A DNA stretch of 62,294 bases from an uncultured Clostridia bacterium (GCA_964577435.1 CAZNZD010000003.1:1-62294); one strand, 5' to 3'. Shown: positions 2-15,149, numbered from the stretch's first letter. Translations and numbers: made by a program. Notes: generated by a model from the sequence alone, not told the origin.

Positions 2-1312
<1,311 letters not shown>

Positions 1313-1325
1313 GGAGGCTGGGATT

Positions 1326-1724
1326 ATGGACAGGAAGATCAGGGTACTTGTGGCCAAGCCGGGCCTCGACGGACATGACAGGGGCGCAAAGGTAGTCGCC
1401 CGCGCGCTAAGAGACGCCGGCATGGAGGTAATCTACACCGGCCTCAGGCAGACCCCCGAGCAGATCGTAAACGCCGCTGTACAGGAGGATGTGGACTGCG
1501 TGGCGCTGTCTATCCTCTCCGGCGCGCACAATCACCTCTTCCCTAGGGTAGTCGAGCTGCTTAAGGAGAAGGGCGCAGACGATGTTCTGGTGATAGGCGG
1601 CGGCGTCATCCCCGACGAGGACATACCCGGCCTAATTGCAGGTGGCATCGCCGGCGTTTTCACCCCCGGAACCCCGACCACGAAGACGGCAGAGTTCATC
1701 CGCGAGAATATCAAGAGGAAGTAG
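1326..1724 (+). CDS. Methylmalonyl-CoA mutase cobalamin-binding (small) subunit
   Basis: [12 protein letters not shown] (DxHxxG) B12 motif; AGGAGG SD upstream of ATG 1326. Confidence 0.95.
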
Positions 1725-1725
1725 G

Positions 1726-2709
1726 ATGTGCCCTGCTGACATAGAAGCAAAGGTCAAGGCCCTTGTAGACGGGGCTGCGTCGGGAGACGTCCGCTCCGTC
1801 TCAAGGCTCATTAGCCTTGTAGAGAACGAAGACCACGGCTACAAGCTCGCCTATTCGCTGCTGTATCCGCTCACCGGAAAGGCGAAGGTCATCGGAATCA
1901 CAGGCCCTCCCGGCGGCGGCAAGAGCACCCTCGTGGACAAGTTCGCGATAAGGCTCAGAGACCGCGGTCACAGGGTCGGCATCATTGCCGTCGATCCGAC
2001 ATCCCCGTTCACCGGAGGCGCAGTGCTCGGCGACAGGGTCAGGATGCAGAGGCACAACGCGGACCCCGGCGTCTTTATAAGGAGCATGGGAACGCGCGGT
2101 CACTTAGGCGGCCTGTCAAAGGGCACTTCCGCGGCTGTAGACGTGCTTGATGCCGCAGGATACGATTATGTGCTCATCGAGACTGTGGGCGTCGGCCAGT
2201 CGGAAATCGAGATATCCTCACTCTCAGACCTTGTCATACTCCTCAACGTGCCCGGCCTGGGCGATGAGATACAGATCATCAAGGCTGGCATCATGGAGAT
2301 CGGAGACGTCTTTGTTGTAAACAAGATGGACCGTCCGGGCGCCGACCGGACGAAGGCGGAGCTGGAGTATGCGCTGGATTTGGGACATGAGCTCCCGAGG
2401 CGGCCTAAGGTCCTCATGACCAATGCCGAGACTTCCGAGGGGGTAGACGAGCTTGTGGAGGAAGTCGACGACTACTATGGCTGGCTAAAGGAGACCGGGC
2501 TTCTTGCGAAGAGGCGCTTCAGGCACTCGGAGCTGGTCGTATCCAGGATATTGGCAGACAGGCTCCTTAAACGCCTGAGCTCAGAGGGGGAAGGCGGGAA
2601 AGCGGCCCACGACCTGTACTCCAAGGTGGCCGGAAGGCAGATGACGCCATTTGATGCCGCCGAGAGGCTTTTCAACACAGTGATCGATGAAAGGGAGGTT
2701 CAGCCATGA
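1726..2709 (+). CDS. meaB: MeaB/ArgK GTPase chaperone of methylmalonyl-CoA mutase
   Basis: GITGPPGGGKSTL, AVDPTSPFTGGAVLGDRVRM, ETVGVGQSE, NKMD; operon context. Confidence 0.93.
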   Translation: MCPADIEAKVKALVDGAASGDVRSVSRLISLVENEDHGYKLAYSLLYPLTGKAKVIGITGPPGGGKSTLVDKFAIRLRDRGHRVGIIAVDPTSPFTGGAVLGDRVRMQRHNADPGVFIRSMGTRGHLGGLSKGTSAAVDVLDAAGYDYVLIETVGVGQSEIEISSLSDLVILLNVPGLGDEIQIIKAGIMEIGDVFVVNKMDRPGADRTKAELEYALDLGHELPRRPKVLMTNAETSEGVDELVEEVDDYYGWLKETGLLAKRRFRHSELVVSRILADRLLKRLSSEGEGGKAAHDLYSKVAGRQMTPFDAAERLFNTVIDEREVQP

Positions 2710-3113
2710 AGGCCCTGAAAGTGGACCATATAGGAATAGCGGTTACAAGCCTTGAGGAGAGCGCGAAGATGTACGAGGCCATGGGCCTCAAGATGCACGG
2801 CACCGAGGAGGTGGCGGAGCAGAAGGTCCGCGTAGGTTTCTTCCCCGTGGGAGACACGGAAGTGGAGCTTCTTGAAAGCACCGATCCAGAGGGGCCCATA
2901 GCGAAGTTCATCGAGAAGAACGGCGGAAGGGGCGGCATCCAGCACCTGGCCTTCAGGGTGGACAATGTCGCGGAGGCTATCGAATCGCTGAAGGCCGCAG
3001 GAGTGCCGATGATCGACCAGGCGCCCAGGTACGGGGCAGGAGGCGCGAAGATCGCATTCATCCATCCGAAGGCGACTGGCGGAGTGCTCATAGAATTATC
3101 CGAAAGGGACTGA
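2706..3113 (+). CDS. mce: Methylmalonyl-CoA epimerase (VOC fold)
   Basis: DHIGIAV, GIQHLAFRV, AFIHPKATGGVLIEL; ATGA overlap with meaB. Confidence 0.93.
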   Translation: MKALKVDHIGIAVTSLEESAKMYEAMGLKMHGTEEVAEQKVRVGFFPVGDTEVELLESTDPEGPIAKFIEKNGGRGGIQHLAFRVDNVAEAIESLKAAGVPMIDQAPRYGAGGAKIAFIHPKATGGVLIELSERD

Positions 3114-3180
3114 TATAAGGCTTTATACAGCAAGACCCCGGACTTTGCGGCCCGGGGCCTTATCATTGCCGATTTCTGTG

Positions 3181-3675
3181 TTACAGCGCTTCTCGGACTA
3201 TTCCCTCCATCTTGGCAGAGAACAAGATAATCCCGGCTTCGACCGATCTGGCAAGCTTGTCCGTATCGTCGAAGTCCGGCCGCTCTGCGAGGACTCCCTC
3301 GACAATCGAATCGACGCCGGGAGCCACCCTGGAAAGCTCATATCCTCCAAGGTCATGTCCCTTCAGAAGCTCAATGTACTCGGCCTGGACCTTCCTGTTG
3401 CCGCCTGCGAGCCAGACCTCCAGCCTATTGCCCTCATGGAGGTAGACCACCGCGACCTTGAGCTTCCTTTCATTGAGATAAGGCGGAGTGAAGGAGAAGT
3501 ACGTCATATCCATGTAGCCCTGGTAAAGCGAGCCTGCCGAATGATCAGGATGATTCGTTGCCAGCATATCCCTCAGTCCGGACATGAAAGATATGATGCC
3601 CCTGTATGCTCTCTGAATACTCCCCACCCTAAGCTGGCGGTTGTATTCGCTGACATCCTCGCTCAGAGAAGCCAT
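3181..3675 (-). CDS. Conserved hypothetical protein (DUF7000-like)
   Basis: YQGYMDMTYFSFTP and EVWLAGGNRKVQ resemble a conserved DUF family; GGAGG SD before MASLSED. Confidence 0.6.
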   Translation of the reverse strand: MASLSEDVSEYNRQLRVGSIQRAYRGIISFMSGLRDMLATNHPDHSAGSLYQGYMDMTYFSFTPPYLNERKLKVAVVYLHEGNRLEVWLAGGNRKVQAEYIELLKGHDLGGYELSRVAPGVDSIVEGVLAERPDFDDTDKLARSVEAGIILFSAKMEGIVREAL

Positions 3676-3698
3676 GCCCCCTCCTCCTTCTGCGCATC

Positions 3699-4223
3699 TT
3701 ACCTCTTCGATTCCCAATCCTCGCGGGTTATCTCGTATAGGTCCACCTCTTGGCCGTTAAACAGGGCCGTCTTCCTGAGACCCATCCCCAGCGTTGAAAG
3801 AATCGCCGCAGATTTCCCGTTTTCCCGCTCCACGGTGGCATTCACCTTTGCCAGGCCAAGTGACGCGAATGCGTAGTCAAGGCAGGCGCGGGCGCCCTCG
3901 AGCGCATACCCCTTCCCCCAATGCGCCTTGGCCAGCATATAGGCGAGGCAGTCATGGGCTGAGCCGTCCACGGTCTCCCTGATGATTCCCATCTGCCCGA
4001 TGAACCCGCCACCGTATATGAGCTCCGCAGCCCAGTAATCGTAACCCGGGTCACGGTATGCTTTCATGCACGAAGCGAGCCATTTGTGGGAAGACTCCGC
4101 GTCCAGCGGCCCTGAGCAGTATCTCATCACCTCAGGGTCGGACAGAAGCCCAGCGATGTCTGCCAGGTCGCCGCCTTCGAGGTGCCTGAACAGGATCCTA
4201 TCCGACTTGAACAGCGTACTCAT
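3699..4223 (-). CDS. GNAT N-acetyltransferase, RimJ/RimL type
   Basis: SDPEVMRY, YMLAKAHWGKGYALEG, NGKSAAILSTLGM. Confidence 0.85.
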   Translation of the reverse strand: MSTLFKSDRILFRHLEGGDLADIAGLLSDPEVMRYCSGPLDAESSHKWLASCMKAYRDPGYDYWAAELIYGGGFIGQMGIIRETVDGSAHDCLAYMLAKAHWGKGYALEGARACLDYAFASLGLAKVNATVERENGKSAAILSTLGMGLRKTALFNGQEVDLYEITREDWESKR

Positions 4224-4236
4224 CTCAATCACCCCG

Positions 4237-5373
4237 TCAAGCTTCATCCGGTTTATTGATGACCCCCAGATGCCTTCTGGCTGAGGACGCATACCCATGC
4301 GCCATTAAGTCCGCCCAGAAGGCCGCCCTTCTCGGATTATTCGCGGCAGGACCGTTCAAGCTTGGCTGCTTCCTCGAGCAGTCTGCCATGTCGCTTTCCC
4401 TCATCTCCATTGTATTCCCGATATCATCGAGCATGCACGCTCCTTTGTCCGTGTTCAGCAGTATCACGGACACTCCGAGCTCATCTTTGAGGTCGCTAAA
4501 CTTCCTGCCTGCCCCCCAATAGTCGCCTATAGTGATGTCAGAATGCCTTCTCTTGCCTGCGTACGGGCATTCATAGCATGATGGCCTCAGTATCAGCCTG
4601 GACAGGAACAGCCCCTTCAGAAGCTGGGAATCCTCGCTAGAGCTGTCTGTTGACCCGTCCTCGAAGGTTACCTCCTCACGATGGCCGGACCAGCCGAACT
4701 CCTTGGGGCGGAATCGATAGCCTGAAGCCTTCTTCCCGTGCAGGGCCTCAAGATGGCTGATATGCTCCTTAAGCAGTTTCACGCTATAAGCCCCGTAGCA
4801 GATGAGGTCTACAAGAAGCAGCCCAACGAAGTCGGCGCCTGTCAGCCTTACGAACCGCTTAAGTGCATCTGCCTGGCAGGGAAGCCCGGTGAACATGACC
4901 GGCGTACCGGCTGCAAGATCGCCGGCCACCCGGTTGTACGCTCCCTCGGCATCGCTTTGCGCATACTTCGAACCTCTTAGGCAATCACTGGAAGCCCCAT
5001 CAATAGCCCTAACGTGCCTCACGCTGAAGTCGCCTTCCAGCTTTGCGCCATACACTGCCCCGCCTTTGGCCAGTACTGCATCAGATATTGCGGTGAATGC
5101 GCCGCCGGACGTGCTCCCCAGCCGCGTCTTGTCGTCCTTATGCTTTGCAGCGAACACTTTGGGCTCATGCAGGCTTCCCGACATCTCCCCCGCTTTGGCG
5201 AAGGCGCATGCCCTCCTGCAGAGCCCGCAGTCGATGCAAGTCGAATCATCGATGAAAGGGTACAGAAAACCCTCCTCATCATCGACCATCGAGATGGAAC
5301 CTGAAGGGCAGATGTCCGCGCAGGCTGCGCATCCGCAGCAGGCCTCTTTCCTGTCGTATACGTTGTCCATCAA
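4237..5373 (-). CDS. 4Fe-4S ferredoxin plus coenzyme F420 hydrogenase/dehydrogenase beta-subunit-like protein
   Basis: CCGCAACADICP and CIDCGLCRRAC; STSGGAF, RGSKYAQS, FTGLPCQ, DLICYG, LRPSCYECPY, SDITIGDYWG. Confidence 0.85.
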   Translation of the reverse strand: MMDNVYDRKEACCGCAACADICPSGSISMVDDEEGFLYPFIDDSTCIDCGLCRRACAFAKAGEMSGSLHEPKVFAAKHKDDKTRLGSTSGGAFTAISDAVLAKGGAVYGAKLEGDFSVRHVRAIDGASSDCLRGSKYAQSDAEGAYNRVAGDLAAGTPVMFTGLPCQADALKRFVRLTGADFVGLLLVDLICYGAYSVKLLKEHISHLEALHGKKASGYRFRPKEFGWSGHREEVTFEDGSTDSSSEDSQLLKGLFLSRLILRPSCYECPYAGKRRHSDITIGDYWGAGRKFSDLKDELGVSVILLNTDKGACMLDDIGNTMEMRESDMADCSRKQPSLNGPAANNPRRAAFWADLMAHGYASSARRHLGVINKPDEA

Positions 5374-5569
5374 TAATCAACCCCTCCGGGATGATTGGCT
5401 GAGCTAAGTACGGCCATTCCTTGGGACGGGCCCCGGGTATCCGCAATACATGGTAATCCTTTATCCGCAATCGTCATAATTCCTTCTGAGTGCCTTTCCC
5501 TGAAGGATTCGTCGAAGCTTCATTGAATTATGATTTGTTGTCCAAATCAACAGGAATCGGGGGTTAGAC

Positions 5570-6076
5570 ATGAAGAGAGCTACTTTGGCGGCGATTATCG
5601 CAATGATCATCGTTCTGGCGGCATCATCGGCATCCTCGGCTAAGAACAACTCCCTCAGCCTCACTGGATCGTTCGGCTCGACGTTGCTCGGCCTTGAGTA
5701 TGAAAGGCGCATCGGCCATTTCGGGCTTGGCCTGGAAGCCTCCACGTTCTTGAGCTTCCCGTATTATCAGCAGATCGAGGCTCTTCCTCTCAGGGTCAAC
5801 GGACTTATGAGATACTACCTGGGCGACGTCTCCTGGATCAAGCCCTACATATCACTCGCTCCCGGTGCGTTCTTCTCATTCTTCCCGGCCGAACCGGAAG
5901 GTTTCGATTACAACCTGGCATTCAACATGCATGCCACGGCAGGTGTCGAGATAACCCCAGGGCCGCTAAGGGTGGCGGTAGAGGCAGGATATGAGTTCAT
6001 TGCGGTCTTCCTGTATCCAGAGCCCGTGGCAGAGGGCTGGTTCTTCATGAAGGCGGCCGTCGGATTGAGATTCTAG
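5570..6076 (+). CDS. Putative small outer-membrane beta-barrel protein
   Basis: Signal peptide; amphipathic strands (GLEYERRI, AGVEITP, VEAGYEF); C-terminal KAAVGLRF with terminal Phe typical of BAM substrates. Confidence 0.6.
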   Translation: MKRATLAAIIAMIIVLAASSASSAKNNSLSLTGSFGSTLLGLEYERRIGHFGLGLEASTFLSFPYYQQIEALPLRVNGLMRYYLGDVSWIKPYISLAPGAFFSFFPAEPEGFDYNLAFNMHATAGVEITPGPLRVAVEAGYEFIAVFLYPEPVAEGWFFMKAAVGLRF

Positions 6077-6112
6077 CGTGAAGCCTCAGCGAAGAAAATC
6101 TGAACAATAGGC

Positions 6113-6145
6113 GCGGACCCGGCTTCTCGCCGGGTCCGCCCTTTT
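6113..6145. terminator. Intrinsic terminator hairpin between convergent genes
   Basis: gcggacccggc-ttctc-gccgggtccgc followed by cctttt. Confidence 0.7.
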
Positions 6146-6146
6146 C

Positions 6147-6956
6147 CTACAGCTCGTTCAGGTGCTCGAAGTAGAACGACTCCGGTACGTAGAATGTACT
6201 CCCCTTTACTCCCCTCAGGCTGAAGCGCCTGAAATACATCACGTCGCTCGGCATCCTATCGTTCCCCTCATCGTCCGGAGGAAGCTCCGATTCATAGTGG
6301 CCGCTGTCGGCCGTGACATCCACGGTGATGAGCTCGTTCGGTTCGATGTCCAGCTCGAAGCTCTGATACTCCCGCGCGTTGATGAAAAGGGTGATGGTGT
6401 CGCCGCGCCTTGAAAGCGTGAGCATGTTGATGCCGTTCATTATCGTGCCCGTATCCTCGGTGCGCTCGATTATCGTCTGCCCCTTGAAGAGGACTGCAAG
6501 ATGCGGCTCAGTCGGCTTCTCCACAGGGTTGTTCCTCAGGAAGAAGAACCCCAGCTCGGTCGGAGGCGGACATGCCGCGGGCAGAGTGTAGTCGTCTCCG
6601 AGGCACGGTACGTTCAGGATGTTGATCATGAACACGAAGAAGCCGTTCCAATGCCCGTCATCGGCTCCGGACGGCTTGCAGTCGAGCTCGAACTCCATAG
6701 TGAAGTCGAAGTCGTTGATGAAGGCAAGCGGCGCTATCACCTTGTAATTGTGCAGCGAAAGGCCCTTTCTGGGGACGAAATGGAAACCGGTGGCCATCCC
6801 CTCTTCCTGCTCAGGCCTGAGGCTTGTGCCTCCCCTCCAGCTTAGCACCGGCGTCGCCACGAAGTCGTCCACCCTAGTGCTCAGCAATAGGCAGCCCGAA
6901 AGCATCGAGACCATGGCTAGAAGACATGCGGCTAGAATTAACCTGCGGATTCTCAT
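6147..6956 (-). CDS. Hypothetical lipoprotein, possibly ConA/DUF1080-like beta-sandwich
   Basis: Lipobox MLSG-C after a basic then hydrophobic N-terminus; beta-rich; resembles 36984..37631. Confidence 0.6.
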   Translation of the reverse strand: MRIRRLILAACLLAMVSMLSGCLLLSTRVDDFVATPVLSWRGGTSLRPEQEEGMATGFHFVPRKGLSLHNYKVIAPLAFINDFDFTMEFELDCKPSGADDGHWNGFFVFMINILNVPCLGDDYTLPAACPPPTELGFFFLRNNPVEKPTEPHLAVLFKGQTIIERTEDTGTIMNGINMLTLSRRGDTITLFINAREYQSFELDIEPNELITVDVTADSGHYESELPPDDEGNDRMPSDVMYFRRFSLRGVKGSTFYVPESFYFEHLNEL

Positions 6957-7099
6957 GACCTTTACCTCCCTATATTCACTTCATCGCATCCTTGAAAATG
7001 GCCCTGGCGTCCGACTGCGGACAGGATTTTTATTTCAATTGTAGAATCATATCAATGGTATTCCTTTGATCGATCATATCGCGACTGGAGGCGAGCCTA

Positions 7100-10000
7100 A
7101 TGAGAAGGTCTCTTCTAAGGGTGGTCTGCCTCGCATTTGTTGCCTTCATCCTCATTTTAGCATGCACATCGGCCTATGCATCTGTTTTTTCGGATTTCAA
7201 GTCGGGGATTTCCGGATTCGTGCAGGAATCGGGAATCGCCAAGGCCGTAAGCGCCGCACAGGCCATCCTGACCAAATCAGCGACAAGCGGCATCTCTGTC
7301 CTGAACCGCTTCAAAAACCCCCTTGAGGTCAAACTGGAGGAGGAATTGCCGGCGGTCGCGGGCGAACTTGGCAAGCTTGCCCAGGCGATGGTCTACATAA
7401 CCGGCCCTCAGGTCAAGGCGGCCTATGACAAGATCAGGTCCGCACTGGCATCCATCCCTGACGCTGAGATAGGCTGGAGCTTCCCCGGAGGAAGGTTCGA
7501 GGCTTTCAAGAGGGGAGGCTCCCTTGCCGTGATGGGCATAGTAAGGGCCTCGGGAAGCAGGCTCATTGTGGGCATCTCAAACTCCGACCCGCTTTGCGAC
7601 TACGCCGCGGGCAGGCTTCCCAACCCCACGCCAGGACTACCTTACGCATTCATCGACATAACCGGCGGGGTGAACTCCTCCTTCCAGGCTAGGGCGCCCC
7701 TTGCAGGGGGGCTTCCTTTGATAAGGGCTTCGTCCTCGATGGAAATCGGCGGGCAGCTCTTCAGCATCGACATGTCCGCCTTCGACCTCGTCCCCACCAA
7801 GGTGGAATGCGAGATAGGCCTCGGCATAGAGGCGACATTCGACGCGGAGCTGATGCTTGAGGGCGAACTTGAGGGAAAGCTCTGCTACGAGTGCGAACCT
7901 CATAAGGCCACGGCATTTGCCAGGCAGGCCATGGAGGCGATGCAAAGGTCGGCGCCAATAAAGCCCGGCATGGAGGTTGACGCAAGGACGGCCGCCAATA
8001 TGCTGTATGCAGGCTTCAGGCAGGTGCTTTCGAACCTGACATCATCGGGCGACACCCTAGGCGAGGTAGGCATACAGGTCGAGCTTACCGCCAAAGGGGG
8101 GATTGGGGCCGCCGACACGTCTGCAACAGCCGGAAGCCTGAAAGCAGGGATAGGCTTCATGCTTCCCGTCGGCGACGCCGCCAAGCTCACGCTTGCAGTC
8201 ATTGCCGACGTGATAACAGCCGGCATGGACTCCCTCCCTTACATTCAGAAATACGCAGCGTGTAGGTCCTTCAATGATCCAGAATCCATAGCGAGGGACG
8301 CGGAGAAGCTTCAGCGGATCCTCGCCGACCTTGGCAGAAGCGGCCTGTCAAAGGCCCTGGCGGCCTCATCGAACTCCAAGGCGAAGCTGGAGGTGGCCCT
8401 TGACGCGCTTGGCGAGGGAAAGTCCGATTCCTCCACTTCCCTACGCATGTTCGGGATAGAGGCTGAGATTCCGGCCGGTCGCAGCATTCAGGCTGTCTTC
8501 AAGCCGGAGTTCGTCCGGGAATGCATTAATGCGATAGCCTACATAATCGACCAGATATCCCCGAAGGGCATCTCCGGAAGGCGGGCGGCACCGGAGCCGG
8601 ACTGGAACAGCCTGTTATCCGTGATTCCAACCGGGACCGTGCTTGAATTGGAGCTCAGCCCCGGCATACCAGTCATGACCCTTGAAGCCAAGTTCCCCCT
8701 CTCCTCCCTTGTAGAGACCGTGAAGGCGGGGGGCTCTTCCGCAATCGACCTGCTGACATCGCTTCCCGAGTGCGTGCGAAGCGGCAACTTCACCCCGCTG
8801 ATGAAGAAGGCGGGCAGCTCATTTGCCGGCCTCACCGCTAAGGCGGTCACCGAGTTCAAGAAGGATTCCACCTTCACGCTTAAGCTCGGCGGAGGCTTCG
8901 ACGTATCATTGGGCGCCGAGGCCGCAGCGGAAATCGGCCTCGGGGCGAAGGCCTTCATCAAGACCGACCTTGAACTGCCATGCGTACTGGCCGGGAGCAA
9001 GTTCGACAGCGCTGGCAAGGACGGCGAGGCTTCCGTCGGCCTTCTGTTCGAGTTCGAAGGCGAGGGCAAGGTCGAACCAGGCGAGTTAGTCGAAGTGGAG
9101 GCGTCTGCAGGGATAGACACGAAGCATAAGCTATTCAATGTGACGTTCAAGGAGGTGGACAAGCAGCCCGGAGCCCCTGACGAGGTGATGGTCGCAGGCT
9201 TCCTGGTGACATCCTACAAGGGCACCATAGCCAATGACAGCTCGCTAAGCGGGTCAGGCAAGCTCCACCTTCCGGTAGGTGGCACGGTCGATGCGAACTT
9301 CAAGACCGACAAGGCAGGAAAGGTGCTGTCGGGCACCTGGAAGGGGACAGTAAGGATTGCCGAAAGGACCTTCAGCATAGCCTCAGGGACACTTAAAGAT
9401 GATGGGCTGCACTGGTCCGCAAATCCCGGCCTTCCCTTCATGCCGGCTTCGGCATCGATTGACATGCGCCTGGGACCCGACTTCGAGCTGTCAGGCCAGG
9501 GCGCTGCTACAGCAAGCCTTCTCGGAGTAAGCCAGCAATATGCAGTAGGCATAGACCTATCAACGGGGCAGTTCTACGCGACTGCCAAGCAGGCGGTCAA
9601 AATCGGCCCGTGGACTTTCACCAACGCAGACTTCCGCCTGGACAACTCCGGGATTAAAGGTTCCGGGGAGCTCACCATGCCCGGAGGGACTTCGACCAGG
9701 TGGGACATAAGTGTGACGAGTGACGGCACCATAAGCGGCAGCTACACCAAGGACTTCAAGATAGCCGGCTGGTCGCTGGCAAGGACGCAGCTTGCAATCG
9801 GCAACACTAAGATAACCGGCACAGGATATATAAAACTTCCCGGCACAGCCGCCGAGATGCAATACGGGATAACCATAACATCGGACCTGAAGCTCAGCGC
9901 TAGCTGGTCGGGCTCTGTCGGGTACGGCTCATGGACACTGGCTGAGGCGGCGGTCACGGTGACTGATGGCAGCTTCTCCGGAAGCGCCAAGGCCGGCATC

Positions 10001-11497
10001 CCAGGAAGCTCAAGCATAGCCTTCGGCCTCAGCGGCACGCCTACGAGCTTCACCGCGACAGCGGCCCAAAGCCTCACGCTGTTCGGGTACAACCTCACGA
10101 ACGCATCGCTTGCGCTCAGCACGACTAAGATATCCGGCAACGCTTCAGTGTCGCTGCCTTCGGGGCCAAGCGTGAGCCTGGCATTCAATATCACGCCGAC
10201 GTCCTTCTCCGGGACTGTGACGCAAGACCTTACGATTATGGGATGGACCTTCACGACGATGAAGCTTACGATGACGGATACATCGTTTACGGGCGCCGGC
10301 AAGGTCGACCTGCCCGGAGGAAGCAAGGCCACGGCAGATCTGACATTCACCCCCACGACGGTCACAGGAAGCGCAAGCCTCTCCTCAGGTAAGCTCCTTA
10401 GCTGGACGTCGACTTCCATAAGCGTGAGCTTCAGCAACAACAGCCTTGTCGGGACGGCAAGCCTGAAGCTTGGCACTACCCCGTCGTTCACTCAGTCGTT
10501 CAATGTAACCATAACGCCGACTGGCATATCCGGCTCCGCCACCTTGGCCGGGCCAACCCTGATGGGCTGGACGCTTGCGACGGGCTCGCTGACATTAAAC
10601 GGCCTTGCCGTCACGGGAACCCTCGATATCACGGTGCCGGGAATCGCCAAGACCAGCTATCTTGTGGATGCCTCGCCAACCAAGCTGGACATCACATACG
10701 CAGGAAGCATCACTGTCATGGGCTATGACGTGACCAATGCAGACCTTAGGATCGCCGGCTCCACGATGACAGGAAGCTTCAAGCTGGCCGTGCCCGGGCT
10801 GACGTCCACCCAGTTCACCGTAGCCGCCAGCACCACGAAGTTCGAGGCCACTGCGACCGGCCAGATAACGGTGTGCGGCTGGGATGCCGCTGAGGCCTCA
10901 CTCAAGCTTGCCAACTCGGCGATAACAGGCACGGGCAAGATAGATATCCTGGGAGTGAAGCCCACCTTCGACTTCATCGTGAATCCGACCGGAGCTTCCG
11001 GCAAATACGAGCAGAACATGGACTTCCCGCTGCCCGGAGGAAAGAAGGTGACTATCGAAAACTGCAAGCTCACTCTCGATACCGCAAACGGCATGAGGGG
11101 AACCGGAAGGCTTAAGCTCCAGAATGTGACCCTTGCAAACGCGGACTTCGGCATCGCGAAATCCGGCAGCATAACGGGAATAGCCTATCTGGGACTGGGC
11201 GCAAACAGCGTGAAGTGCAACTTCACCCTGACATCAAGCTCGATTTCGCTTACAGGCAGCATGTCGGCGAGCGCCAGCTGCACCGTGCCGGTTCCGCTCA
11301 TATCCGACCCCACTTTCTCCCTTTCCGCGACCGTATCGGTAGGAATCCAGAACACGAACGAGCTTAAGCTAACTGCATCAGGGACAGTGGACGCGCCTGT
11401 CATCGACCCCAAGTCCGTAAGCGGTTCGGTGGACCTTGCTACTGGCAAGTTCAGCGTCAGCGTCGTAGGCTACAGCCTCGAATTCGACCTGTTCTAG
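7100..11497 (+). CDS. Large (1465 aa) secreted protein with a long C-terminal tandem beta-repeat region
   Basis: Continuous ORF; signal peptide (LILA-C lipobox or AYA cleavage site); GGAGG SD; Ser/Thr/Gly-rich repeats; ends LEFDLF. Confidence 0.8.
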   Translation: MRRSLLRVVCLAFVAFILILACTSAYASVFSDFKSGISGFVQESGIAKAVSAAQAILTKSATSGISVLNRFKNPLEVKLEEELPAVAGELGKLAQAMVYITGPQVKAAYDKIRSALASIPDAEIGWSFPGGRFEAFKRGGSLAVMGIVRASGSRLIVGISNSDPLCDYAAGRLPNPTPGLPYAFIDITGGVNSSFQARAPLAGGLPLIRASSSMEIGGQLFSIDMSAFDLVPTKVECEIGLGIEATFDAELMLEGELEGKLCYECEPHKATAFARQAMEAMQRSAPIKPGMEVDARTAANMLYAGFRQVLSNLTSSGDTLGEVGIQVELTAKGGIGAADTSATAGSLKAGIGFMLPVGDAAKLTLAVIADVITAGMDSLPYIQKYAACRSFNDPESIARDAEKLQRILADLGRSGLSKALAASSNSKAKLEVALDALGEGKSDSSTSLRMFGIEAEIPAGRSIQAVFKPEFVRECINAIAYIIDQISPKGISGRRAAPEPDWNSLLSVIPTGTVLELELSPGIPVMTLEAKFPLSSLVETVKAGGSSAIDLLTSLPECVRSGNFTPLMKKAGSSFAGLTAKAVTEFKKDSTFTLKLGGGFDVSLGAEAAAEIGLGAKAFIKTDLELPCVLAGSKFDSAGKDGEASVGLLFEFEGEGKVEPGELVEVEASAGIDTKHKLFNVTFKEVDKQPGAPDEVMVAGFLVTSYKGTIANDSSLSGSGKLHLPVGGTVDANFKTDKAGKVLSGTWKGTVRIAERTFSIASGTLKDDGLHWSANPGLPFMPASASIDMRLGPDFELSGQGAATASLLGVSQQYAVGIDLSTGQFYATAKQAVKIGPWTFTNADFRLDNSGIKGSGELTMPGGTSTRWDISVTSDGTISGSYTKDFKIAGWSLARTQLAIGNTKITGTGYIKLPGTAAEMQYGITITSDLKLSASWSGSVGYGSWTLAEAAVTVTDGSFSGSAKAGIPGSSSIAFGLSGTPTSFTATAAQSLTLFGYNLTNASLALSTTKISGNASVSLPSGPSVSLAFNITPTSFSGTVTQDLTIMGWTFTTMKLTMTDTSFTGAGKVDLPGGSKATADLTFTPTTVTGSASLSSGKLLSWTSTSISVSFSNNSLVGTASLKLGTTPSFTQSFNVTITPTGISGSATLAGPTLMGWTLATGSLTLNGLAVTGTLDITVPGIAKTSYLVDASPTKLDITYAGSITVMGYDVTNADLRIAGSTMTGSFKLAVPGLTSTQFTVAASTTKFEATATGQITVCGWDAAEASLKLANSAITGTGKIDILGVKPTFDFIVNPTGASGKYEQNMDFPLPGGKKVTIENCKLTLDTANGMRGTGRLKLQNVTLANADFGIAKSGSITGIAYLGLGANSVKCNFTLTSSSISLTGSMSASASCTVPVPLISDPTFSLSATVSVGIQNTNELKLTASGTVDAPVIDPKSVSGSVDLATGKFSVSVVGYSLEFDLF
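9587..11008 (+). repeat. About nine tandem ~52-aa protein repeats (GW/GY-x-x-T-x-A-x-L...G-x-G-x-I-x-LPG...F-x-I-T-P-T-x-FSG)
   Basis: Units include IGPWTFTNADFRL..MPGG, IAGWSLARTQL..LPGT, LFGYNLTNASL..LPSG, IMGWTFTTMKL..LPGG, LMGWTLATGSL..VPGI, VMGYDVTNADL..VPGL, VCGWDAAEASL. DNA is diverged; repeat is visible at protein level only. Confidence 0.75.
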
Positions 11498-11510
11498 ATG
11501 CCTAAATGCC

Positions 11511-11543
11511 AAAAAGGGGCTGCGCATCCTGTGCGCAGCCCCT
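11511..11543 (-). terminator. Intrinsic terminator
   Basis: aaaaa-ggggctgcgca-tcctg-tgcgcagcccct between convergent genes. Confidence 0.75.
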
Positions 11544-11563
11544 CATGCATCATTGATTTTGAG

Positions 11564-12727
11564 TTACGCTCCGTAGACCTTCCTGAACTCGGCAACAGCC
11601 TTAACGGCATCGGCCTTCATGCCCATCTCGCTTAGGACCTCGCCGATAAGCGTGATGGCCTTCTCCAGCATCTCAGGGGTGGTGCTTCCCATGTGCCCGA
11701 GCCTGAACGCCTTTCCGGCGAGGGATGCAAGGGCGCCTGCGACTATCATGCCGCGCTTTGCGAGGGCCGCCCTGAATGCCGCGTCGTCCGTACCCTCGAC
11801 ATGCCTGAAGGTCGTAAGCGTCGGCGCTTCTATGCCGGATTCGGCAAGGGGCTTGAGACCGTATGTGGCAAGCGCCGCCCTTACTGCCTTGCCGTATGCC
11901 CTGTGCCTTGCATAGCGGGCTTTGAGGCCCTCGGCCATGACGGCCTTCATGCCCGCCTCGTATGCGTAGATCATGTTCACGGCGGGAGTCGCGTAGTACT
12001 TGCCGGGGTTCTGCATGACGGGCGTCCACATATTGATGTCTGCGTAGTAGGCGTTGACCCTGCCCATTGCAGCCCTCGCTTCAAGCGCCTTCTTGCCGAA
12101 GGCCACTATAGCAAGGCCCGGCGGCACTCCGATTGCCTTCTGGCTTCCTGTGAGCACCACATCTATCCTGTAGTCCTCGTTGCCTGCATACGCCCTCGAC
12201 ATGTCCTCTTCAATCGCCGCCGTCGCGCAGACGCCGTCAAGTATGAGAAGGGCGCCACTTTTCTTGATTACTGGGACTAGCTTCTCCAGGTCGGACTCGA
12301 CGCCGGTGGAGGTGTCCACGTGAGTCACTGTTACAGCCTTGAAGCCGCCCTCTGCGAGCTTCCTTTCCACTTCCTTTACATCGACGTGCTTTCCCCACTC
12401 GGACTTGATAGCCTCAACCTTGATTCCAAAGGCCTCGCCGAGCTGGATGAACCTGTCTCCGAAATAGCCATGGCTCAATACCAGGAGCTTCTCCCCGGGC
12501 GCTACGGTGTTCACGATGGCGATCTCCATCGAAAGCGTACCGGAGCCCGCCACCACGAATACTTCCCCGTCGCAGTTGAACATCTGCCTGGTCATCGAAA
12601 GGGCATTCTTGTATATCTCGACGAACCTGGGGTCGGTATGGGCGCGGGTTTCTCCTGATAATGCATCGTACACTTCGTCGGCTACCGGAGTCGGGCCCGG
12701 TATGAGCAGCATTTCCTTATTGCGCAT
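11564..12727 (-). CDS. Class V PLP aminotransferase (serine/alanine-glyoxylate or serine-pyruvate type)
   Basis: LLIPGPTPV, THVDTSTGV, ILDGVC, TGSQKAIGVPPGL (PLP Lys), FRLGHMG. Confidence 0.9.
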   Translation of the reverse strand: MRNKEMLLIPGPTPVADEVYDALSGETRAHTDPRFVEIYKNALSMTRQMFNCDGEVFVVAGSGTLSMEIAIVNTVAPGEKLLVLSHGYFGDRFIQLGEAFGIKVEAIKSEWGKHVDVKEVERKLAEGGFKAVTVTHVDTSTGVESDLEKLVPVIKKSGALLILDGVCATAAIEEDMSRAYAGNEDYRIDVVLTGSQKAIGVPPGLAIVAFGKKALEARAAMGRVNAYYADINMWTPVMQNPGKYYATPAVNMIYAYEAGMKAVMAEGLKARYARHRAYGKAVRAALATYGLKPLAESGIEAPTLTTFRHVEGTDDAAFRAALAKRGMIVAGALASLAGKAFRLGHMGSTTPEMLEKAITLIGEVLSEMGMKADAVKAVAEFRKVYGA

Positions 12728-12831
12728 CTGTCTTCCTCCCAAAAATCAAGGCCAGCTCCGGGCCGGCCATATTCGGCAACGGATATAATTATGCTTGAAT
12801 CTCTCCCCTTATTCAACAAGCATGGCACCTG

Positions 12832-13551
12832 CTATGCCCCGCAGACCTTGCAGTTGTCCTTCCTTTGAAGCTCCATCGTCTCGAAGGCCCCGGTGTAGAG
12901 GTCGAAGTATATCAGCCTTCCGGACGGGAAACCGGTTTTCCCGGCGGCAAGGAATTTCACAGCCTCAGCGGCCATTATGGAACCGACTACTCCGGCGGTT
13001 GCCCCCAGAACCGAAGGCGGCTTGCCCTTCTCCTCTGATTCGTCAGGAAGAAGGCACGCCCTGCATGGTCCGACCTTGGGTTCGAAGAAGCCGACCATGC
13101 CCGTATATGCCTCCACTGACCCGTCTATGTATGCCGTGCCGGTCTTCCTGCAGGCCCTGTTGATCACCTGCCTAGCGTGGGGATTGTCGACGGCGCCCAG
13201 GACTATGTCGTAGCCCATGATAAGCTCCGGAGCGTTGTCGTCCTCCAGCCTAAGCGCATGGACCGTCGCCTTGACCTCGGGGTTCAGCTGGGTTATCTTG
13301 AACGCGGCCGAAGAGGCCTTCACCTCGCCAATATCGGGAGTGAAGTGCAGTATCTGCCTGTTCAGGTTCGAAAGCTCTATTACGTCTGAGTCGATTATCC
13401 CGATCCTGCCTACGCCGGCCGCAGCAAGGTAGTATAGAAGCGGCGAGCCGATTCCTCCGGCCCCCACCACGAGCACGCCCGAATCTGCAAGCCTGCCCTG
13501 CGCCCCGTCATCGAAGCCCGGAAGGCCCCGGTGCCTGTCATATCTGCCCAT
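12832..13551 (-). CDS. ThiF/MoeB/HesA family adenylyltransferase
   Basis: GAGGIGS, DSDVIELSNLNRQILH, Zn motifs CRAC and CKVC. Confidence 0.88.
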   Translation of the reverse strand: MGRYDRHRGLPGFDDGAQGRLADSGVLVVGAGGIGSPLLYYLAAAGVGRIGIIDSDVIELSNLNRQILHFTPDIGEVKASSAAFKITQLNPEVKATVHALRLEDDNAPELIMGYDIVLGAVDNPHARQVINRACRKTGTAYIDGSVEAYTGMVGFFEPKVGPCRACLLPDESEEKGKPPSVLGATAGVVGSIMAAEAVKFLAAGKTGFPSGRLIYFDLYTGAFETMELQRKDNCKVCGA

Positions 13552-13680
13552 GCCACACCTCCGCGCCGAATATTCGGCTTAAGAGCCGCCCTTTGATTGG
13601 TGCAATGGCCGCCCCTATGTATTATTCTATCAGTAAGGCGCCGATTGGTGTCCACATACCATAGCATCAGGAGGAATATC

Positions 13681-13971
13681 ATGCCCAAGGGACTGATCTC
13701 CGACCCGGCGGACAACATAGCTACCATGCTGCAGGACGCAAAAGCGGGCGAGGAAGTGCTCGTGGCCGGCAAGGCGGGCATTTCCAGCTTCTCGGTGACG
13801 GCTTCCACTGATGTGCCGATGTACCATAAGATCTCGCTTGCGGACATCCCTGCGGGCGGGACTATAAGTAAGTACGGTAATCCGATGGGAATTGCGACGA
13901 AGCCGATAGCAAAGGGCGAGCATGTGCACATACACAACATAGCAAGTCTTAGGGCCAGGAGGGATTCGTGA
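13681..13971 (+). CDS. SAF-domain small subunit of a UxaA-family dehydratase/lyase (SuyA-like)
   Basis: DNIATML, DVPMYHKISLADIPAGGTISKYG, GEHVHIHN; AGGAGG SD. Confidence 0.85.
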   Translation: MPKGLISDPADNIATMLQDAKAGEEVLVAGKAGISSFSVTASTDVPMYHKISLADIPAGGTISKYGNPMGIATKPIAKGEHVHIHNIASLRARRDS

Positions 13972-15149
13972 TGGCAGACGATAAGATGATGCTCTCCGGA
14001 TACAGAAGGCCCGACGGCAGGCACGGTATAAGAAACCACATGGTCATCATACCGGCCTCCGTATGCGCAGGCGAGGTATCGTCCCGCATCGCATCCGCGG
14101 TTCCTGGCTCAGTGGCGCTCGTGCATTCGAACGGCTGCTGCCAGATGGGCGAGGACTACGCACAGACTGCAAGGACGCTCATAGGCATGGGGACTAACCC
14201 CAATACAGGCGCAGTACTGGTAGTGGGCCTCGGCTGCGAGGGCATGCAACCCTCTGAGCTAGTCGATGGCATATCGAAATCAGGCAAGCAAGTGGACCTG
14301 GTTATCATACAGGAGTGCGGCGGAACCGACGGGGCAGTCGCGGAGGGAATCAAGAAGGCGACGGCGCTTGCCTCCGGCATCTCGGACATGAGGCCAGAAC
14401 CTTTCCCGATATCGGAGCTGGTGCTGGGACTAGAATGCGGAGGCTCCGACCCCACGTCGGGAATAGCCGCGAACCCTTCACTAGGTGTGGCGTCGGACAT
14501 GCTTGTCCAAGCGGGAGGCACCTCAATACTGTCAGAGACCACAGAGCTCATCGGCGCAGAGAGGATACTTGCTCAAAGGTGCTGCTCCGAGGAGACCGCC
14601 AATAAGCTTCTCAGGATAGTGGACGATGTAGAGAAGCGCGCACTGGCGATGGGCTCGGACCTGAGGGGCACGCAGCCTACGCCCGGCAACATCAAAGGCG
14701 GCCTTTCCACCATCGAGGAGAAGTCCCTTGGCTGCATACTCAAGGCGGGCAAGTCGAGGATGATGGGAGTGCTCAGATACGGCGAGGAGCTTCCGAAAGG
14801 TGCAAGGGGCCTTTACATGATGGATAGCCCTGGCCAGGACGTGGATTCGATGATCGGCATGCTTGCGGGAGGCGCCCACATCGTCGTCTTCACCACCGGG
14901 CTAGGCACGCCCACCGGCACGCCCATAGCGCCGGTCATCAAGGTGACCGCAAACGGCAGGACTTACGGCAGGATGAGCGGCAACATAGACATAGACCTAA
15001 GCCCCGTCATGGCCGGGGAGATGACCCTCGATGAGGCCGGCGCGCTTATCTTCTCCGAGATGGTCGATGCAGCAAGGGGCAAGCTTACCAAATCCGAGGT
15101 CACAGGCCACAGGGAGTTCGGCATATACAGGGTGGGGCCCACCTTCTGA
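13968..15149 (+). CDS. UxaA/GarD/SuyB family dehydratase, large subunit
   Basis: GYRRPDGRHGIRN, VGLGCE, LECGGSD, GNIKGGLSTIEEKSLGC, FTTGLGTP. Confidence 0.88.
   Translation: MMADDKMMLSGYRRPDGRHGIRNHMVIIPASVCAGEVSSRIASAVPGSVALVHSNGCCQMGEDYAQTARTLIGMGTNPNTGAVLVVGLGCEGMQPSELVDGISKSGKQVDLVIIQECGGTDGAVAEGIKKATALASGISDMRPEPFPISELVLGLECGGSDPTSGIAANPSLGVASDMLVQAGGTSILSETTELIGAERILAQRCCSEETANKLLRIVDDVEKRALAMGSDLRGTQPTPGNIKGGLSTIEEKSLGCILKAGKSRMMGVLRYGEELPKGARGLYMMDSPGQDVDSMIGMLAGGAHIVVFTTGLGTPTGTPIAPVIKVTANGRTYGRMSGNIDIDLSPVMAGEMTLDEAGALIFSEMVDAARGKLTKSEVTGHREFGIYRVGPTF

Follow-up and report, generated by a model that had tools for sequence, protein, structure and literature searches.

What does a bacterium do with a large exported protein that belongs to no family that can be named and consists in good part of one long run of repeated β-strands? 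The question is raised by a stretch of 62,294 nucleotides from an uncultured Clostridia bacterium (GCA_964577435.1 CAZNZD010000003.1:1-62294; the whole of it is called the window here), in which a single open reading frame (ORF) of 1465 codons occupies positions 7100-11497 on the + strand. The initial annotation had read its product as 1465 residues long and ending in LEFDLF, and translation bears out both the length and the C-terminal end. The answer preferred here, tentatively and with a little less than even confidence, is that this target protein (P0001) is an exported, extracellular or cell-surface protein that carries a head on a stalk, the repeats forming a ribbon that packs against itself as the stalk or anchor. 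The parts of the protein to which the argument refers are, by window position and strand:

7100..7180, +, signal peptide (residues 1-27), with a lipobox-like ILAC (Cys22) and an AYA/S signal peptidase I site
7181..9169, +, N-terminal head (residues 28-690), alpha/beta, with five long predicted amphipathic β-hairpins
9170..9598, +, adapter (residues 691-833), the first and best-conserved ribbon units, matched by the hidden Markov model (HMM) of the unit at residues 698-750 and 756-801
9599..11020, +, nine clear 52-residue units (residues 834-1307), each predicted to be two ~26-residue hairpins, that is four strands, with GW and LPG turns
11021..11494, +, C-terminal cap (residues 1308-1465), degenerate units and a conserved end ...V.L.TG.F.V...G....FDLF

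The repeat ribbon

An HMM built from nine hand-cut units recovers nine strong units at residues 834-1307 (nt 9599-11020), with independent E-values (i-Evalues) of 1e-19 to 5e-25, and finds weaker units flanking them on both sides. About nine clear units of ~52 residues, with degenerate flanks, had been placed at 9587..11008 beforehand, and the two delimitations differ by an offset of 12 nt. When iterated across the protein family, the model collects 283 units in total, and 13 in the target protein between residues 698 and 1389. The consensus of the 283 units is V-A-G-[FW]-T-L-x-N-A-x-L-T-L-x-N-G-G-L-S-G-S-G-x-L-x-L-P-G-G-x-x-V-x-F-x-L-x-V-x-P-x-x-L-S-G-S-A-S-G, and it keeps the features by which the repeat had originally been described: a GW/GY turn, here G4-[F/W]5 (the "GW" turn), an LPG turn (L27-P28-G29), and alternating hydrophobic positions. 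The profile of the unit correlates with itself at shifts of 25/27 (r=0.45, against <=0.24 elsewhere), which indicates that the 52-residue unit is a duplicated hairpin of ~26 residues; the ribbon would then comprise about 30 copies of a 26-residue hairpin. Units are just 19-35% identical to one another at the protein level, indicating that the array is old, has seen no recent expansion, and is not undergoing homogenisation.

The array is bounded by two conserved elements. The adapter carries the motif VAGFxV..F.G....DGS.SGSG.L.LP.GG...G.W.G.....SGT..D.GLHW, with invariant columns V9, G11, F12, G31, G60, G74, and G80 in alignment A2, and it occurs without the head in P0045, P0047, P0048, and P0050. 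The cap is conserved in P0007, P0008, P0037, P0047, P0048, P0045, P0025, and P0051. Between conserved adapter and cap, the number of units ranges from 2 to 13 per protein.

An AlphaFold2 (AF2) model of residues 690-1465, made with 17 aligned sequences, is all-β, with a mean predicted local distance difference test score (pLDDT) of 89 (85-94 in the nine clear units) and a predicted template modelling score (pTM) of 0.54. It contains 61 consecutive strands, mostly of 8-13 residues, in runs of up to 11 strands joined by 2-4-residue turns. Together with the N-G-type turn between strands B and C in the consensus, the 2-residue turns indicate that successive strands share one sheet, and the model thus supports a ribbon that is one continuous antiparallel β-meander. 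The initial annotation had proposed just such a continuous antiparallel sheet, and the outcomes that it had named as speaking against the idea were looked for without any of them turning up: there is no string of Ig-like domains or other discrete β-sandwich domains and no parallel β-helix or solenoid (no Pfam domain; the AF2 model is an uninterrupted antiparallel meander), nor is there a match to a characterised family. Two other arrangements were considered and set aside. A two-layer hairpin sandwich is at odds with the many 2-residue connections and the N-G-type B-to-C turn, which place neighbouring strands in the same sheet, and a β-propeller with four strands per ~52 residues does not suit strands that are strictly two-faced, and its matches in Foldseek are insignificant. 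If flat, the predicted ribbon would measure about 29 nm from end to end, each strand contributing 0.48 nm.

The two faces of the ribbon, taken as alternate residues of each strand, are sharply distinct. The greasy face is composed of L17/A15/G14/V12/I11/F9 %, with a mean Kyte-Doolittle (KD) hydropathy of +1.9, and the opposite face of S24/T21/K8/D7 %, with a mean of -1.0; on average the faces are 3.03 KD units apart, a gap that shrinks to 1.45 +/- 0.15 if the residues of each strand are put in random order. The faces also differ in their conservation. Relative to an orthologue of 59% identity (P0005), identity is 73% on the greasy face and 74% in the turns against 55% on the polar face, which by these alignments is how a core differs from a surface. 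In membrane barrels the reverse is usual for residues that face lipid.

The gene as a whole is under strong purifying selection. Against two orthologues at synonymous divergence (dS) of 0.6-1.2, the ratio of nonsynonymous to synonymous substitution (dN/dS) is 0.04-0.08 in head, adapter, repeats, and cap (about 0.06), and it is lowest in the cap, at 0.04. The signal peptide stands apart at 0.3-0.5, against about 0.06 for the rest of the gene. The target gene and the two orthologous genes are all exactly 4395 nt long (1465 residues), even at a dS of about 1.2.

Comparison of the ribbon model with the PDB by Foldseek yielded two significant matches, both to the β-belt of apoB100 (9ea7, 9e9r; E 2e-4, prob 0.96, TM-score 0.19), a resemblance that is taken as one of shape class and not of kinship. 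Insignificant matches to Rhs proteins, SGS1, teneurin, propellers, and large outer-membrane barrels follow, and a Foldseek search of BFVD returned nothing. The Rhs/YD-repeat and teneurin YD shells, weakly matched through 7pq5, 8fjp, and 9g41 (prob <=0.13), resemble the target in having long antiparallel hairpin repeats in one sheet, but the target lacks YD motifs, an Rhs core, and a toxin tip, and its low pTM of 0.54 does not suggest a closed, well-determined shell.

The head module and the family

The N-terminal half had been described at the outset as mixed alpha/beta, and this is what an AF2 model of residues 28-800 shows (33 sequences; pLDDT 78, pTM 0.74): an N-terminal helical region is followed by hairpins interleaved with helices. 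The five hairpins lie at residues 235-265, 322-356, 427-458, 591-623, and 643-685, and four of them are weakly homologous to one another (hhalign 94, 52, 44, and 42%). By the same method the hairpins of the head show no homology to the unit of the ribbon (hhalign probability <2%). Residues that are near-invariant across the family are N175, G334/G336/D339, G438, P458, and G599/G605/E607/G613, and the hairpin tips are rich in Gly and acidic residues. The segments of the head modelled with pLDDT <50 are these tips, and three of them hold most of the near-invariant residues (G334/G336/D339; G438; G605/E607). Foldseek found no counterpart of the head model in the PDB, the best matches being porins at E 2e-3 and prob 0.25, and the head profile matched no PDB sequence. 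Similarly, no structure of a large lipid transfer protein (apoB/vitellogenin/MTP) was found with the head by Foldseek, and there is no Pfam match to vitellogenin_N.

That the repeat would match no family with a name had been anticipated, and the searches agree. No family in Pfam (E<=1), NCBIfam, or PHROGs matches the target protein; phmmer found no match to it among PDB sequences, where family profiles gave just coiled-coil noise from regions that the target lacks. Among 5.8 billion clusters, a word-indexed search turned up four close homologues, each of them labelled hypothetical, and the family came to 54 clusters when 1.84 billion representatives were searched exhaustively with HMMER. The labelled records with members, judged by the titles of metagenome-assembled genomes (MAGs), are uncultured Clostridia/Bacillota MAGs, including a sludge-digester bin, Myxococcales MAGs, and Armatimonadota; one partial copy lies in a bin labelled Thaumarchaeota.

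The family is built of two modules, the head and the adapter-repeat-cap (residues 691-1465 here), which are found both together and separately. About 45 sequences keep the head whole, as one unit. The adapter-repeat-cap follows it in the target protein, P0007, P0008, P0010, and P0037, stands behind other heads elsewhere (Cu_amine_oxidN1 in P0047, unknown β domains in P0048), and is nearly alone in P0045 (368 residues). The head in turn is fused to ricin-type lectin repeats in P0013, to two LamG domains in P0025, to cadherin-like repeats and SLH domains in P0028-P0031, and to Big_13/HYR and OmpL47-type domains in other members. In P0015-P0024 the head is followed by few hairpin units, a coiled coil, OmpL47-type or Ig-like domains, and a GlyGly-CTERM-like tail, the last being a reading by eye that no model match supports. 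P0014-P0024, P0032-P0035, and P0038-P0040 share a helical region of ~350 residues, with a conserved ...L[DN]xWYNGL..., after the few hairpin units; this subfamily continues with Ig-like/OmpL47-type domains and then GlyGly-CTERM-like tails (by eye) or Verrucomicrobia-like-type C-terminal domains.

In a sample of 401 genomes of the phylum, the head occurs in 3/277 genera (about 1%), and in two of these three it is the N-terminal domain of SLH-anchored giants. One of these proteins (L022; G221:C1, ORF 1357-8715, -) has 2452 residues with six cadherin-like matches, two CBM_X2, two HYR, and three SLH domains. The other (L023; G359:C2, ORF 1270-14229, -) has 4319 residues with cadherin-like, HYR, Big_5, Flg_new, Big_3, and three SLH domains. 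In both, the N-terminal ~700 residues are the head module and the SLH domains are C-terminal. Judged by this domain order, the head of the SLH-anchored relatives is extracellular and sits distally in the protein, and this is the strongest evidence on location. The target shares with these Bacillota surface proteins a signal peptide, an N-terminal head, and a long all-β region after it; it differs from them in having no SLH, Ig-like, cadherin-like, or CBM domains, in that its all-β region is one continuous ribbon of hairpins, and in its diderm host. The genome G221 is closed at 3.1 Mb and therefore probably comes from a cultured organism.

Closer to the target, the gene is present in 5/7 genomes of the genus, being missing in G017 (98% complete) and G015, and in 0/14 genomes of other genera of the order; it is an accessory, stand-alone gene. 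The copy in G018 (G018:C10:212523-216872, loci L014/L015) lies in three frame pieces (residues 2-688, 692-1004, and 1000-1465), implying two frameshifts, and is either a pseudogene or an artefact of indel errors, the assembly consisting of 10 contigs and possibly being built from long reads.

The N-terminus of the target reads as MRRSLLRVVCLAFVAFILILAC-TSAYA-S and offers both the lipobox-like ILAC with Cys22 and an AxA site (27/28). ILAC fits the lipobox [LVI][ASTVI][GAS]C in P0001, P0002, and P0003, and the cysteine is missing in P0005, P0006, and distant homologues; Cys22 is thus retained in the three closest orthologues only and is already absent from the 59% orthologue. This restriction indicates that lipid anchoring at Cys22 may occur in this clade but is not a trait of the whole family. 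The earlier proposal of a signal peptide with a possible lipobox LILA-C therefore stands as regards the signal peptide; its lipobox cysteine is kept at the level of the clade only, with the AxA site as an alternative.

Readings of the protein

If the protein is a surface head on a ribbon stalk, it would be exported by Sec, with a possible lipid anchor at Cys22 in this clade. The head, ~660 residues in a fold unseen in the PDB, would bind or act on an external target, for example a glycan or cell surface, its conserved Gly/Asp/Glu hairpin tips probably being the working surface. The ribbon, ~775 residues in about 61 strands closed by the conserved adapter and the conserved cap, would serve together with the cap as spacer or anchor, the role of the Ig-like, cadherin-like, and SLH domains in head-sharing relatives. 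Its greasy face would be buried in a specific protein-protein core, whether the ribbon coils on itself or pairs with one or two others, leaving the variable Ser/Thr face toward solvent; such burial is suggested because the greasy face is the best-conserved part of the ribbon. The conservation of adapter and cap around a variable number of units follows a capping logic that counts for the same reading. Of the two functions offered by the initial annotation, an extended surface filament or adhesin thus fits better than a TamB-type bridge, although it is something that we infer rather than observe.

Several observations weigh against a self-packed surface stalk. The pTM of 0.54 leaves the global arrangement of the ribbon uncertain, and its shape may be flat, coiled, a groove, or a tube. 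The greasy face is 29% Gly+Ala and has a near-invariant mid-strand Gly (G21 in 243/283 units), which is unusual for an ordinary core and would suit a lipid-facing or sharply bent sheet too. No domain known to serve in anchoring or adhesion is recognised in the target protein. A Sec substrate of a diderm host remains periplasmic unless it is exported further, and the gene has no linked partner for such export. Finally, a dN/dS of about 0.06 and a fixed repeat number are tighter than is usual for adhesins.

The host is diderm. Its genome (G000) carries an Omp85/BamA gene on contig C66 (bamA 4619-6433), beside Skp-like, LptFG-like, and LptC-like genes, and, on contig C47 (6298-9483, -), the gene for a 1061-residue OmpM-like protein in which an SLH domain and a coiled coil are combined with a porin-like C-terminus whose last residues are ...STKF (by eye). 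A 1340-residue exported protein encoded on C26 (106-4128, -) and ending ...ITVTLRF is possibly a large outer-membrane protein (by eye). A Pfam-detectable TamB is lacking in 7/7 genomes of the genus (G000, G015-G020), whereas tamB lies directly upstream of bamA in three other genera of the same order; jackhmmer searches of G000 with the TamBs of those genera found nothing, and four genera of the order lack both TamB and the target gene. The genus could thus be a TamB-less diderm lineage, or its TamB could have diverged beyond recognition.

Because of this gap, the idea of a lipid bridge stays alive, in the unlikely form of a ribbon whose greasy face would be a belt or groove for lipid or a hydrophobic surface, either spanning the envelope as a stand-in for TamB or lying on a membrane or lipid particle, with the head loading or docking it. 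The sole significant look-alike in the PDB argues for this. In apoB100, a globular N-terminal domain precedes the belt, an amphipathic sheet 61 nm long whose 120 strands have an average length of 11 residues (PMC11839476); the target likewise begins with a globular domain, and the amphipathic antiparallel sheet that follows is also long and unbroken, its strands being about 10-11 residues in length. The strongly two-faced strands, with a greasy face that is rich in Gly and Ala, as on lipid-facing barrels, are also consistent with it, as is a diderm host with BamA and an OmpM-like protein in a genus without the TamB found beside bamA in other genera. The likeness to apoB100 is nevertheless limited to a TM-score of about 0.19 and 12% identity, with no sequence homology and unrelated heads, and the target has no interstrand inserts; moreover, its greasy face is its most conserved face by identity, the reverse of what is usual for lipid-facing residues. 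As for bridges of the TamB/AsmA/YhdP type, which the initial annotation had offered as one of two options, the target resembles them in being long, all-β, and possessed of a hydrophobic face in a diderm bacterium, but its unit is a 26/52-residue hairpin and not five strands plus a loop, and models of TamB (PF04357), AsmA, and YhdP give 0 matches to it (Pfam E<=1; NCBIfam also 0). The distant relative P0007 has a noise-level match to YhdP (E 0.0099, 14 bits against a cut-off of 46). No uncleaved inner-membrane anchor helix is seen in the sequence, the N-terminus reading as a cleavable signal peptide or lipobox, and Foldseek, which had been suggested as a check against TamB and VPS13, found no structure of either, nor of Lpt, among the top 50 PDB matches of the ribbon model. 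There is no linkage to bamA or tamA, the neighbours of bamA on C66 not including the target gene, and the gene is dispensable in the genus, missing as it is from the two congeners and from four TamB-less genera of the order. Relatives fused to extracellular domains, and above all a head that is extracellular in the SLH-anchored ones, speak against an envelope bridge as well. The boldest version, a bacterial counterpart of the apoB design in TamB-less diderm Clostridia, whose head would load or dock and whose ~29-nm amphipathic β-belt, its greasy face in contact with lipid, would wrap or rest on a lipid particle or membrane or else span the envelope, is quite improbable. A giant outer-membrane β-barrel or autotransporter-like anchor, in which BamA would insert the ribbon and the terminal Phe would act as β-signal, is very improbable. 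Alternating hydrophobic and polar residues, aromatics at turns, a final Phe, and a BamA in the genome would all suit a barrel, and FhuA, PapC, and SprA are among the weak Foldseek matches. These barrel matches are insignificant, however (E >=0.07), and the hydrophobics of ...YSLEFDLF stand at -2, -4, and -6, out of register with the canonical β-signal (-3, -5, -7); several relatives end in L, R, Q, or W. The range of 2 to 13 units among relatives would not be tolerated by a closed barrel with a fixed number of strands. The loops are short on both edges, the repeats lie in mid-protein in some relatives, ahead of coiled coils and Ig-like domains, and the conservation of the greasy face is again in the wrong sense.

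Two further alternatives put the head at the centre. That it is a new catalytic domain, acting for example on polysaccharide and displayed on the surface with the ribbon as a mere spacer or anchor, would give it a location that overlaps with the favoured head-on-stalk arrangement, and seems improbable. It is consistent with the make-up of the SLH-anchored relatives, in which a signal peptide and N-terminal domain are followed by CBM_X2, cadherin-like, or Ig-like spacers and three SLH domains, the usual build of Bacillota wall-anchored enzymes, and with the near-invariance of N175, D339, and E607 across the family. The invariant acids, though, sit on low-confidence, Gly-flanked hairpin tips and not in a well-formed cleft; no enzyme family or fold is matched, and the window contains no linked genes for a pathway or a transporter. 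The same tips could instead belong to a secreted protein of the pore-forming-toxin type, in which the head hairpins, and perhaps the ribbon, would oligomerise into a β-barrel in a target cell while the lectin or Ig domains of relatives do the targeting. The five amphipathic hairpins of 13-19 residues, with Gly/Asp/Glu tips that are most conserved and yet least confidently modelled, are what would be expected of loops that insert or change conformation; the relatives' ricin-type and LamG lectin fusions, which lectin-bearing cytolysins also carry, and a rare and patchy occurrence across phyla, as is usual for accessory weapons, point the same way. Against such a toxin stand the lack of any Foldseek or sequence match to aerolysin, haemolysin, MACPF/CDC, or Tc, the fact that known β-pore formers are not built with five hairpins per chain, the tethering of the SLH-anchored relatives to the producer's own wall, the lack of a linked immunity or activation partner gene, and the very low dN/dS, and we consider it decidedly unlikely.

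Gene context and significance

Two elements ahead of the gene can be proposed:

7087..7091, +, ribosome-binding site GGAGG, read from the sequence, 8 nt ahead of the ATG
7018..7047, +, weak sigma-70-like promoter match (9/12), a consensus match only, in the 143-nt divergent intergenic region

Promoter-like matches of this kind are in no excess over shuffle expectation at 7018..7047. The gene is divergent from its upstream neighbour and convergent with its downstream one, which makes it most likely monocistronic. Nearby genes of the window are of the housekeeping type (methylmalonyl-CoA mutase, MeaB, an aminotransferase, ThiF, a UxaA-type dehydratase, MATE, FtsH, TilS, glycine cleavage). Two smaller genes lie close by. 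One (5570-6076, +) encodes a 168-residue protein with a signal peptide, an alternating hydrophobic pattern, and the end ...AAVGLRF, which looks like a small 8-stranded outer-membrane barrel and has no Pfam match at E<=1. The other (6147-6956, -), divergent from the target gene, encodes a predicted 269-residue lipoprotein with a signal peptide ending LSGC and no Pfam match. Both stand beside the target gene only in the locus of the closest orthologue and are missing at the P0005, Myxococcales, Armatimonadota, and P0062 loci; no gene neighbourhood of the target is shared across clades.

Pfam, NCBIfam, and PHROGs have no entry for either module, and the PDB has no convincing relative of either; the family, although unannotated, extends across Bacillota, Myxococcota, Armatimonadota, and further lineages under purifying selection of housekeeping grade. 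If the lipid-belt reading were true, it would bear on how outer membranes are built in TamB-less diderm Bacillota, and a true counterpart of the apoB design would make these proteins a previously unrecognised class of prokaryotic lipid-handling β-belt proteins. As a stalk or anchor, the ribbon, confidently predicted to be a single sheet of ~60 strands made of 26-residue hairpins, would be of a design unlike both strings of Ig domains and β-helices, and it raises the structural question of how such a single sheet hides its greasy face. The presence of the head at the tip of SLH-anchored giants, in closed genomes of the cultured type, makes the function of the head testable.

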